From Gallionellaceae bacterium (lineage in GTDB: Bacteria; Pseudomonadota; Gammaproteobacteria; Burkholderiales; Gallionellaceae), in assembly GCA_008080515.1 (NCBI GenBank), contig VIKH01000002.1, positions 57-64,056 of the forward strand: a stretch of 64,000 bases of DNA, in the 5' to 3' direction. Below, piece after piece: positions 2,204 through 4,521 of the stretch. Both the position numbers and the translations under genes were made by a program. Each line of letters opens with the position of its first letter. Position 1 is the stretch's first letter. The notes under the pieces were generated by a model. It was not told the DNA's origin, searched no databases, and saw only the letters and a list, made by a program, of their open reading frames with translations.

Positions 2204-2668
2204 CTACCTATAACCCATCCAGTCTATAGGAGTCTCCTCAAAGGTCTTGCTATCGAGAATTGGTTTAAGGTTTGTGTCCAACAATTCACAGAACACATTA
2301 AGAAAGGAATTCGCGAAATTGCAAATGTCCGTCTTGGGATCCCGATACGTAAAGAATTTTGTTAGCTCATCATATCCATGCAGCTTTAGAAAATCTTCGA
2401 CGTCTAGCTTACGATTCACGGGTTTTATGATCATCACGGAAAAACCTCCGTTTAACCCTTCACGGGCTGAGTCAAATGCAACACGAATCTCCATACCGGT
2501 CCGTTTGTTAAAGAAGTGAAACACCGAATAGAGTCCCAACTCCTGATTCCCCCCGAGGCTTATCTCTTTGAGTTCAAATCCATGTTTCGCAAATATGAAA
2601 GAATGTTCACGTACAACCTCACCCACAATTGCACCATCGCCTGTAAGAGTTACTTCGGTCTTGTTCAT
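2204..2668 (-). CDS. Hypothetical cytoplasmic protein, candidate immunity partner of the upstream toxin-like ORF
   Basis: 154-aa ORF with no signal peptide or TM segment. Its ATG (2666-2668) overlaps the upstream stop (2665-2667) as ATGA. Low GC like its neighbour. Function inferred from position only. Confidence 0.5.
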   Translation of the reverse strand: MNKTEVTLTGDGAIVGEVVREHSFIFAKHGFELKEISLGGNQELGLYSVFHFFNKRTGMEIRVAFDSAREGLNGGFSVMIIKPVNRKLDVEDFLKLHGYDELTKFFTYRDPKTDICNFANSFLNVFCELLDTNLKPILDSKTFEETPIDWMGYR

Positions 2669-4081
2669 TTTATCGCTCCACCAATACTGCCGTCACCGAA
2701 CAGAATTTGTTTCTCCATATCGTAGAACGGACTATTTTTTTGTCCTCCGGGGTTGCCTACATCCACCACGGTGTAGCCCTGATCTTTTAACTTTTGCGCC
2801 CACGCCTGGTTCTCTTGAAACATCTGTGATTTCCGAACGACATCTTCGGGTATTGGCTCCGGTGAGTATCGTTTTTTTAGTGTAGTCCATTGTTCCGCTG
2901 CGGTCGACGGTATCTTATCTCCGCTAAATGTTTCTACATTGTATCCCGCTCCCCGCGAACCCTTTGAGAATGGTTCCACCGCATCGCTCATGCTGCGTCC
3001 AATCACTGCTACTTTGGTGTTGGTTCCAGAGCGAACCCGGACGGCTTTAACCCCACCGTATGTTGAGTGCTCAAGCTCTGCCACAGACTTGCCCAAAACA
3101 CGCGACTTGTTGACTGGCGGTTCCGCAGGTCGAACTTCCGACCGTGTGGCACTGTGCGCAGGCTGAGTCTTCACAGAAGGCGTCGTCTTAACCCTAGCAT
3201 CAACTTTCTCCACCACCCTACTATCTACACTTTCCCGCAGCTTAGGCTTTAAGCGTGGGTCTTCGACCAATTGCTTCCAGTTCTTTTCAACCCACCCGGC
3301 AAACTGCTCGCCCTTAGGCACTTTTCGAAGATTCGCAACAAGCTCCACTATAGCCTGTTCGGAAACTGCCTTTGCGCCCCCCCCCAACAAGTGCCTGCCC
3401 TTTTTGCATCAAAGCGGCTCCCTGCTTGACACCCATATTCTTGGTAATATAGGCAACAATGGCTTGGAGGATTATCAACACCAACAACCCTACTGCCTCG
3501 GCCCACTCTTCGGCCGCCTTATAAATTTCAATGCTACGTTTTGGCTCTTGCAGATCGCCCGCATCCCAAGCACGGACAACAGCATTTTTCATCATTGAAG
3601 CCAATTCGCCAACATTTCCGGCTATGAAATAAAGCAAGAAACTAAGCCCTAGCCATGTCATAACAACAAGAGCAGTCTTTGATCCGATAGCACCTCCGGC
3701 CACCCCTCCCGGGATTGCTCCAAACCCGCCAGCAAATGCTCCGAGTGCGGCGCCAATTGCTGCACCCAGCCCAGTTGTTGCCGCCCAAACTCCCAGCATC
3801 ATCACCATGCCCGGAATTAGTCCAGAAATAAATTCCTCTGCGGCATAGCCCGTTCGCCGTAAAACGGCTGATGAAGCCAGATTATGAGAATCTACATATT
3901 TATAGGCCTCAAAAAGTGCCATGGCGTTATCAAGGGCGAATGGCCGCTTGTTGCCTTTTATCGCATTCCTGAACAGTTCAGGTGATGGCTGCGGTGAGTT
4001 TCTTAGAACCAATGTTCCCTTATCGAAGCCGACTTGCATCTGCGACGAACAAGTAATCCCAAGCTTGGTAGTTGGTCCCAT
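2665..4081 (-). pseudogene. Putative T6SS cargo protein (about 471 aa if repaired): glycine-zipper/TM N-half plus unassigned C-terminal domain, split by a frameshift in a G9 run
   Basis: ORFs 3314..4081 and 2665..3390 overlap at GGGGGGGGG (C9 on the + strand, 3377-3385). Removing one G joins ...MQKGQALVGGG to AKAVSEQAIVEL.... The N-half has GLGAAIGAALGAFAGGFGAIPGGVAGGAIGS and further hydrophobic helices. The C-terminal ~130 aa (KVAVIGRSMSD...DQGYTVVDVGNP...SPFYDMEKQILFG) cannot be assigned by eye. Confidence 0.55.
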
Positions 4082-4116
4082 TTATAAAACTCGCCAGTCA
4101 AACTTAAAGAATTGAA

Positions 4117-4521
4117 TTATGACCTTGACACGTACCCCGCTTTACCATGTGCAAGCGACAGCAGTTTTTTTACTTCTGATTTGAATTGATCATCAGAGAG
4201 GTTATTGGAGCTAAGGATTTGCTTCACATGCTCAGCAGACGTACGCCGCGCAATCATGCAGGAAGTTGTGCCACTAACAAAACCAGCCAATGCGCCAGCA
4301 ATTGCCCCTGGTACTGAGCCAACCAAAGGAACAGTCACAGAACCTACGCCTGCAAGCGCAACAGCGCCTACACCCGCCATTGGAACGCCAGCGGTTTGAG
4401 CGCATCGCTTTGCCAGTTTCATCAAAGTATCGGCCTCTGAATCGCCTATCCCGAAGTAATCCTTGGCAAGTTCCTTTGTGTCTTCTCCTGCTTGCTCAAT
4501 AACACCTAAATCGCTGCTCAT
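4117..4521 (-). CDS. Small glycine-zipper membrane protein
   Basis: 134 aa. Central GVPMAGVGAVALAGVGSVTVPLVGSVPGAIAGALAGFVSG (repeated small-xxx-small) flanked by hydrophilic ends. First ORF after clpV; low GC. Confidence 0.6.
   Translation of the reverse strand: MSSDLGVIEQAGEDTKELAKDYFGIGDSEADTLMKLAKRCAQTAGVPMAGVGAVALAGVGSVTVPLVGSVPGAIAGALAGFVSGTTSCMIARRTSAEHVKQILSSNNLSDDQFKSEVKKLLSLAHGKAGYVSRS

Follow-up and report, generated by a model that had tools for sequence, protein, structure and literature searches.

In Pseudomonas aeruginosa, the Tse6-Tsi6-EagT6 set represents a prePAAR/Eag-dependent type of transmembrane (TM) effector in which the TM segments lie N-terminal to a cytoplasm-acting toxin, while the PoNe/PoNi proteins (PF08928/PF08929), said to have been described by Jana et al. 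in 2019, are reportedly polymorphic nuclease effector-immunity pairs. New families of type VI secretion system (T6SS) toxins turn up regularly. The T6SS effector Tde1 is loaded via the adaptor Tap1, and its glycine zipper is needed for crossing the target membrane (PMC10240207). DUF6861 is known as an N-terminal integral-membrane glycine-zipper domain fused to Ntox15, TNT, EndoU and CdiA tRNase toxins (bioRxiv 10.1101/2022.08.23.504947). Here, we analyze a module at positions 2204-4521 of a stretch of 64,000 nucleotides from a Gallionellaceae bacterium (assembly GCA_008080515.1, contig VIKH01000002.1, positions 57 to 64,056 of the forward strand; hereafter the window). The module lies between the T6SS gene clpV and a vgrG stub and comprises a 134-amino acid (aa) open reading frame (ORF), an effector gene split by a frameshift and a 154-aa ORF.

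Taken as a whole, the module is very probably a polymorphic T6SS cargo-effector/immunity cassette residing in a conserved clpV-vgrG slot, with the effector broken in this copy. On every feature that can be assessed computationally, its predicted products fit the definitions of a polymorphic toxin and of a T6SS effector, and their closest functional analogues would be Tde1/Tdi1 and Tse6/Tsi6. The likeness to Tde1/Tdi1 of Agrobacterium tumefaciens consists in an N-terminal GxxxG cargo effector, a toxin predicted to act in the cytoplasm and an immunity gene directly 3' (PMC10240207). Tde1 is, however, an Ntox15 DNase to which the toxin domain of the window is unrelated, and the membrane domain in the window is much larger, with about 200 aa and several TM segments. 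Unlike the Tde1/Tap1 locus, the module encodes no protein of DUF4123, which we take to be the Tap1 family. With Tse6-Tsi6-EagT6, the locus has in common the TM segments ahead of the toxin, the H1-type cluster and the adjacent immunity gene, but the window effector has neither PAAR nor prePAAR and the neighbouring proteins show no DUF1795 match. Judged by its sequence, the window effector is of neither the prePAAR/Eag type nor the DUF4123-adaptor type; the preliminary description of this locus had likewise recognised no PAAR, Rhs, DUF4123 or DUF1795 element, and no Pfam match to any of these was obtained in the three module proteins.

A PoNi gene occupies the immunity position of the clpV-vgrG slot in a related locus (L035), which indicates that the slot hosts recognised T6SS effector-immunity pairs, although neither the toxin nor the immunity protein of the window has detectable similarity to PoNe/PoNi. 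As in the described DUF6861 proteins, the N-terminal domain of the window effector belongs to a family with interchangeable C-terminal toxins (the PoNi-paired toxin of L035, Endonuclea_NS_2 in L037), whereas the C-terminal toxin of the window differs from the listed Ntox15, TNT, EndoU and CdiA tRNase. The literature retrieved by full-text search for DUF6861 or PF21724 contained no mention of a T6SS slot or of the N-terminal motif described below. New in our view are both domain families, that of the toxin and that of the immunity protein, the fixed clpV-vgrG slot for DUF6861 effectors and the N-terminal motif shared among effectors. A large toxin/immunity domain pair outside Pfam, NCBIfam and PADLOC, with a confident model, candidate catalytic residues and T6SS linkage, would be a target for the biochemistry of a possibly new killing mechanism, and DUF6861, hitherto without an assigned function, as carrier of a class of T6SS cargo effectors with exchangeable tips could aid effector prediction in environmental genomes.

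The putative C-terminal toxin domain and its predicted immunity partner

The putative toxin domain (141 aa; 2668-3090, minus strand) forms the C-terminal part of the effector. Its homologues at 44-70% identity, retrieved from 5.8 billion proteins, were found in three main contexts, namely PAAR proteins of ~280 aa, proteins of ~420-490 aa in which PG_binding_1 is combined with a hydrophobic TM-like region, and DUF6861 proteins. When 1.84 billion representatives were searched with a profile, the family grew to 591 clusters at E<=1e-3 (420 at E<=1e-10), defined at 50% identity and to be read as a lower bound, in proteins of about 100 to 5297 aa from Proteobacteria, Acidobacteriota, Bacteroidota, Bdellovibrionota and Elusimicrobiota. 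The domain is always C-terminal, and the tail following it has a median of 0 aa and a maximum of 31 aa in the 145 best representatives. The scaffolds ahead of it are diverse and include PAAR (P0009, P0020, L014, L015), PG_binding_1 with a TM region (P0003-8), Rhs (P0160), PT-HINT (P0247, L023), PT-TG (P0223) and DUF6861; the Rhs repeats, PT-HINT and PT-TG, like LysM, occur in long members. An extreme C-terminal position behind such varied N-terminal trafficking modules is what characterises the C-terminal domains of polymorphic toxins.

The 154-aa protein (2204-2668, minus strand), predicted to act in the cytoplasm as the cognate immunity protein of this domain, is encoded directly downstream, its start codon overlapping the effector stop as ATGA, as had been noted from the sequence. 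It has 61 homologues, 50 of them of exactly 154 aa, and contains no hydrophobic or TM segment. Its AlphaFold2 (AF2) model reached a predicted local distance difference test (pLDDT) score of 88.3; there was no match above threshold in Pfam or NCBIfam, and neither Foldseek against the PDB nor the profile search of PDB sequences gave a significant match.

For the neighbourhood census, loci (L numbers) were collected by exact-protein look-ups and by scans of GTDB genomes and Joint Genome Institute (JGI) metagenomes, and their ORFs were searched with the toxin, immunity and DUF6861 profiles and with T6SS core protein queries. The ORF directly 3' of the toxin ORF matched the 154-aa profile in 15 of the 18 distinct loci (L001, L002-4, L005, L014, L015, L016, L017, L018, L019, L021, L022, L023 and L024, and L031 and L032, where the 154-aa gene comes straight after the toxin gene in each); two of the three loci lacking a match are on contigs that end shortly past the toxin gene. 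The immunity-profile E-value fades from 1e-79 to 7e-4 as the toxin diverges. The pairing is constant whether the N-terminal module is PAAR, DUF6861, PG_binding_1 or PT-HINT, so that the downstream gene co-varies with the toxin and not with the N-terminal module, which is the behaviour of an immunity protein rather than that of an adaptor.

Cassette arrays, orphan immunity genes and tip replacement, as expected of polymorphic toxins, were likewise encountered. L016 holds three tandem toxin-immunity cassettes, and L033 has an orphan immunity copy, 79% identical to the immunity protein of L001, beside a DUF6861 effector with a different C-terminus. In L016 (1-5700; a metagenome-assembled genome of Candidatus Angelobacter) an additional toxin fragment was also observed and the toxin of one cassette seems split across frames; no T6SS genes lie within this contig.

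T6SS core genes flank the toxin in L001, L002-4, L005, L014, L015, L019 and L032 as well as in the window, and the toxin domain is itself fused with PAAR in several proteins; the linkage expected of a T6SS effector was thus found both as core-gene neighbourhood and as fusion. No cultured host of an intact T6SS-linked cassette was identified in this analysis. The sequence comparisons therefore support a T6SS effector-immunity pair, as the preliminary description had suspected, with the 471-aa protein, once repaired, in the role of the effector and the 154-aa protein in that of the immunity partner: the toxin domain and the 154-aa family occur together at many loci, beside clpV, vgrG or PAAR. 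The census which that description had called for bore out the co-occurrence of these two families near T6SS genes and failed to place the 134-aa family there in the other loci checked.

From a 34-sequence alignment, AF2 modelled the toxin domain as a small alpha/beta domain with pLDDT 92.6 and a predicted TM-score (pTM) of 0.85. Two toxin alignments were used, one narrow (A2) and one broad (A7). W97 is invariant throughout the diverse alignment, in which R32, N94, D110, S120, Y123 and E126 are conserved at >=90% (numbering of the 141-aa domain). The AF2 secondary structure places the conserved residues in the loop that follows strand 26-30, in helices 89-103 and 121-131, and where strand 107-110 ends. 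The toxin would be an enzyme whose active site may be built from R32, N94, D110, S120, Y123 and E126 together with W97. Its substrate could, as a weak guess, be a nucleotide or other small molecule rather than bulk nucleic acid, because members are mostly acidic and a glycine-containing loop follows the first strand. The isoelectric point is 4.3-6.5 in most members, the window copy being an exception with 9.1. Nuclease activity, our first guess, is disfavoured by this acidity, although the argument is a weak one.

The toxin presumably acts in the cytoplasm, since its immunity partner has neither a signal peptide nor a TM segment, and it is there that the 154-aa protein would bind and block the enzyme. 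A peptidoglycan target in the periplasm, considered on account of the PG_binding_1 fusions, was rejected for the same features of the immunity protein and also because a hydrophobic TM-like region lies between PG_binding_1 and the toxin in the proteins inspected (e.g. P0003, P0005). This arrangement of PG_binding_1 and a TM region ahead of the toxin recurs in T6SS-linked effectors (L032 9001-10395, P0003-P0008) and suggests that the PG_binding_1 module may anchor the effector to peptidoglycan in the periplasm of the prey while it is being translocated.

The preliminary description had been unable to place the C-terminal ~130 aa in any named toxin family, and this holds: searches of Pfam, NCBIfam, PADLOC, PDB sequences and, with the AF2 model, Foldseek all gave no match. 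Some resemblances were set aside. In the PDB-sequence profile searches, RNase J showed local identity over 22 aa (KIAVIGRSM, E 0.4) and an Mth938-like protein matched with E about 1; both were taken as chance. When first 17 and later 37 family members were scanned against Pfam, LytR_C and UPF0180 recurred below threshold in a minority, and the LytR_C match of the window, limited to the helix-strand segment A..KL...GYTVVD.GNP, was read as a generic beta-alpha-beta resemblance.

The clpV-vgrG slot and the DUF6861 half

The preliminary description had regarded the genes between clpV and vgrG as a departure from the H1-type order, but the order clpV-DUF6861 effector-immunity-vgrG proved to be a conserved arrangement in related clusters. 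In L001 the order is tssE-F-G-clpV, an effector combining DUF6861 with the toxin family of the window, a 155-aa gene and vgrG; in the contig of homologue P0001 the effector comes directly after clpV and the contig ends next. L033 reads tssF-G-clpV, a DUF6861 effector with another C-terminus, a 160-aa gene, the orphan 155-aa immunity gene, vgrG and PAAR, and L035 reads tssG-clpV, a DUF6861 effector with yet another C-terminus, a PoNi immunity gene (PF08928/PF08929) and vgrG. In L037, DUF6861 is fused with Endonuclea_NS_2. PAAR is a separate gene 3' of vgrG in the related clusters L032 and L033. By these gene orders, the clpV-vgrG position is no anomaly but the place where clusters of this type regularly house an effector, one in which toxin tips are swapped and orphan immunity genes are left behind. 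The vgrG stub, the lower GC content, the toxin swaps and the orphan immunity genes in relatives indicate that the cassette moves by recombination at this slot.

By eye, the swapped tip of the L033 effector (TTVLGRY..DM.., GFNVLNV, ..ALATDP.., MFGREVKYL) and its 160-aa partner (together L033 5773-7685) have the look of remote relatives of the toxin and immunity families of the window. The tip went undetected by the toxin-family profile, and the superfamily may hence exceed the 591 clusters.

The 5' fragment of the effector gene (3314-4081, minus strand; 255 aa) encodes a motif of ~35 aa followed by DUF6861, with a frameshift-induced tail at its end. In the repaired effector, aa 64-267 match Pfam PF21724 (DUF6861) with 100.2 bits against a gathering cut-off of 28 (E 1.3e-28), the sole Pfam family found in the effector. 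The N-terminal glycine-zipper membrane region typical of DUF6861 is present as well, with hydrophobic TM-like segments at ~aa 83-123, 132-158 and 190-218 and [GAS]xxxGxxx[GAS] zipper motifs dense at aa 100-129. The glycine zipper and TM helices reported for the middle protein were accordingly recovered, while its N-terminal half is a catalogued domain and not an unassigned one.

By analogy with Tde1 and Tse6, the DUF6861 zipper/TM domain would insert in the inner membrane of the prey and take the C-terminus to the cytoplasm. It could instead be the toxin itself, a pore former of the glycine-zipper kind exemplified by Tse4 and Ssp6, with the 255-aa fragment active and the C-terminal domain dispensable. 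This fragment does possess the N-terminal motif and lacks none of the predicted TM and zipper segments, and the N-terminal zipper of Tde1 alone permeabilises membranes (PMC10240207). We consider such a role very improbable, as DUF6861 has no candidate immunity protein of the membrane or periplasm beside it, the immunity gene follows the identity of the C-terminus (PoNi in L035, the 160-aa protein in L033, the 154-aa family in the window), and PAAR, Rhs and HINT scaffolds devoid of DUF6861 also bear the C-terminal domain.

The ~35-aa motif ahead of DUF6861 (window ~3976-4081), MAGxRxPGP..(D/N)(D/E)GT..R..(S/T)PxPG, is common to three effector architectures, those with DUF6861, those with PG_binding_1 and TM segments and those with no Pfam match in the N-region. 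It is carried by P0001-P0007, P0011, P0014, P0021, P0024, P0027, P0127, P0130 and P0132, and no Pfam family was reported over the region. This distribution makes it a candidate T6SS loading marker, which would serve as the determinant for loading onto VgrG or PAAR. A more far-reaching proposal, that the C-terminal domain founds a new family of antibacterial toxins whose fold and chemistry are absent from the PDB and which has an immunity family of its own, and that the motif is a new T6SS loading marker like MIX, FIX and RIX, is put forward tentatively and is somewhat less probable than its opposite.

The frameshifted effector gene and the weighing of the evidence

A run of nine G (G9; C9 on the plus strand) at 3377-3385 divides the middle gene into the 255-aa fragment described above and a 3' fragment at 2665-3390 (minus strand; 241 aa), which holds the end of DUF6861, a charged and proline-rich linker and the toxin domain, with homologues, alignments A2 and A7 and the AF2 model in support. 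Removal of one G (G8) restores an ORF of 471 aa, in agreement with the frameshift deduced earlier. The repaired junction ..ALVGGGAKAVSEQAIVELV.. aligns gap-free to intact homologues ..ALRAEGAAAVSDATVAELV.. (alignment A6), intact homologues, 456-485 aa long, are collinear with the repaired ORF over its entire length, and the PF21724 match runs across the frameshift; the gap-free junction and the uninterrupted Pfam match show that the gene was ancestrally a single ORF. The ancestral 471-aa effector would have had four parts, the ~35-aa motif, the DUF6861 zipper/TM domain, a disordered linker and an alpha/beta toxin of ~135 aa, and one extra G would have split it after the membrane domain. The run derives from GGG-GGG-GG glycine codons and is lineage-specific, the homologues of relatives reading AEG at that place with no G-run.

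The same G9, with split gene calls and identical flanks, is present in four assemblies from separate runs or samples (L009-L012; three from ENA, one from Logan), which makes a one-off assembly error unlikely. No G8 or G10 allele occurs among the four, and a scan of JGI metagenomes, a collection that may lack this organism, gave no tract-length variants. Of the features of phase variation, a homopolymer inside the ORF is present and variation of tract length between isolates was not seen in the four assemblies.

The effector might nonetheless be functional, with full-length toxin produced by all cells or a part of them, if the G9 were an error made systematically in assembly, a contingency tract that is on as G8 and off as G9, or a place where transcription or translation slips. 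The 9-nucleotide (nt) homopolymer is of a slippage-prone length, and homopolymers of such length do slip in contingency loci of Neisseria, Haemophilus and Campylobacter. Moreover, all residues invariant in the family are kept in the 3' fragment, and the ATGA still couples translation of the immunity gene. Against this stand the invariable G9 of the four assemblies, the JGI scan lacking tract variants and the intact homologues with AEG in place of the run, and we regard a functional effector as unlikely. The identity of the frameshift across the four assemblies makes it probable that in this population the effector is a pseudogene or is switched off, so that deliverable toxin would not be made. 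The retained immunity gene would protect against kin still firing the toxin. A tblastn search with the effector against plasmids gave no match. A Gallionellaceae population in which a weapon was apparently lost or silenced and its immunity retained bears on strain-level competition.

A number of observations weigh against the interpretation of the module as a T6SS cassette that moves by recombination and is broken here. No Eag/DUF1795 or DUF4123 chaperone is present, which leaves the solubility of a TM effector before firing unexplained. No T6SS genes are found within the flanks of the distant members L016-L018, L020-L026 and L031, and the toxin domain is consequently not T6SS-exclusive; for such divergent members, among them ones in Bacteroidota, Elusimicrobiota, Bdellovibrionales and Zooshikella, export by other routes is probable. 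The window copy retains all residues invariant in alignments A2 and A7, which implies that the frameshift is recent or bypassable. The Foldseek comparison suggested in the preliminary description was run on the AF2 model of the toxin domain and gave no significant structural relative, with a best E of 0.44 and TM-scores up to about 0.36 against the PDB and a best E of 0.65 against BFVD, and profile searches with A2 and A7 against PDB sequences stayed at chance level (best E 0.4-0.6).

The GC content speaks on both sides. The three ORFs of lower GC were found as described between clpV and the vgrG stub, and the module has a GC of 48.7% with GC at third codon positions (GC3) of 0.41-0.51, lower than the flanks (GC3 of 0.76 in clpV and 0.66 in tssF, tssG and the TPR-methyltransferase gene). 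Within the T6SS cluster itself (4597-22725), however, GC is uneven, with GC3 of ~0.51 in tssM and 0.53 in hcp, and this heterogeneity weakens the argument for horizontal transfer. The low GC of the module, as described earlier, is real against its flanking genes, yet it is not unique inside the cluster.

The 134-aa protein, the vgrG stub and the surrounding genes

The 134-aa ORF (4117-4521, minus strand) encodes a glycine-zipper membrane protein as had been described, with a hydrophobic stretch at aa 44-91 and [GAS]xxxGxxx[GAS] at aa 41, 68, 72 and 76. It gave no Pfam or NCBIfam match above threshold. Its family comprises 27 homologues at 54-100% identity, including proteins of Methylomicrobium lacus, Paraburkholderia silviterrae and several metagenomes. 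The preliminary description had counted it as one of a set of three genes, and such a set could be genuine if the 134-aa protein were a dedicated accessory, either a chaperone or adaptor shielding the DUF6861 zipper or a split carrier module. Its gene lies 36 nt upstream of the effector on the same strand behind a strong AGGAGG ribosome-binding site, the zipper motif G..G(S/A)(V/I)PG is in common with DUF6861, the distant family member P0122 has a precomputed PF21724 match, and elsewhere the family has variable small toxin-like neighbours (L030, L006, L028), as would a constant delivery partner.

The family is, however, missing from the equivalent slot of the contig of P0001 and of L001, L033 and L035, and no T6SS Pfam family was found among the called neighbours in its six other contexts (L006, L007, L008, L027, L028 and L030). 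Its Pfam match to DUF6861 is below threshold (E 0.03), and the hhalign probability against the DUF6861 N-domain is just 11%, with 33 low-complexity columns; by these comparisons the similarity is confined to the zipper and homology is not demonstrated. An accessory role is accordingly judged improbable, and the 134-aa protein probably stands outside the effector-immunity pair, so that the proposed set of three was not sustained.

Beside the 134-aa family, two proteins of a 164/201-aa family were observed (L006 7446-7940 and L028 5395-6000; 44% identical, E 1e-35), their genes being upstream of the 134-aa gene in one locus and downstream in the other, and a 178-aa Endonuclea_NS_2 protein lies next to a member of the family in L030 (3101-3637). 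A constant small membrane protein with changing toxin-like partners suggests that these may form an undescribed two-gene system.

The vgrG stub (2036-2140, minus strand) has 34 codons, of which the first ~23 are vgrG-like in translation (MTRLLEINTPLGKENVLLRHLSG..). An intact vgrG of 738 aa is located ~370 bp past the left edge of the window on contigs carrying the G9 locus, separated from the stub by a 65-aa ORF and a methyltransferase gene (window 398-2140; L009 4466-8465). The 5' stub of the preliminary description is hence present, but vgrG is not lost. The coding start of the stub and the 5' end of the intact vgrG of L009 align closely whereas the upstream sequences are unrelated, which marks the stub as a second vgrG 5' end that has diverged and fits an arrival of the cassette by recombination that carried along a piece of a donor vgrG. 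Promoter, terminator and repeat scans around the module returned chance-level results only.

All elements from clpV through the vgrG stub are on the minus strand. The T6SS core cluster is complete, in the order tssK, tssL, tssM, tagF, tssA, tssB, tssC, hcp, an ImpE-family gene (tagJ-like), tssE, tssF, tssG and clpV, and it ends with clpV (tssH; 4597-7338; Pfam AAA_2, AAA_lid_9 and ClpB_D2-small), the last core gene ahead of the effector slot. On the 3' side of clpV follow the 134-aa ORF, the split effector gene, the 154-aa ORF, the vgrG stub, the 65-aa ORF (1775-1972, minus strand) and a TPR/SAM-methyltransferase gene (398-1765, minus strand) of host-like GC (GC3 0.66).

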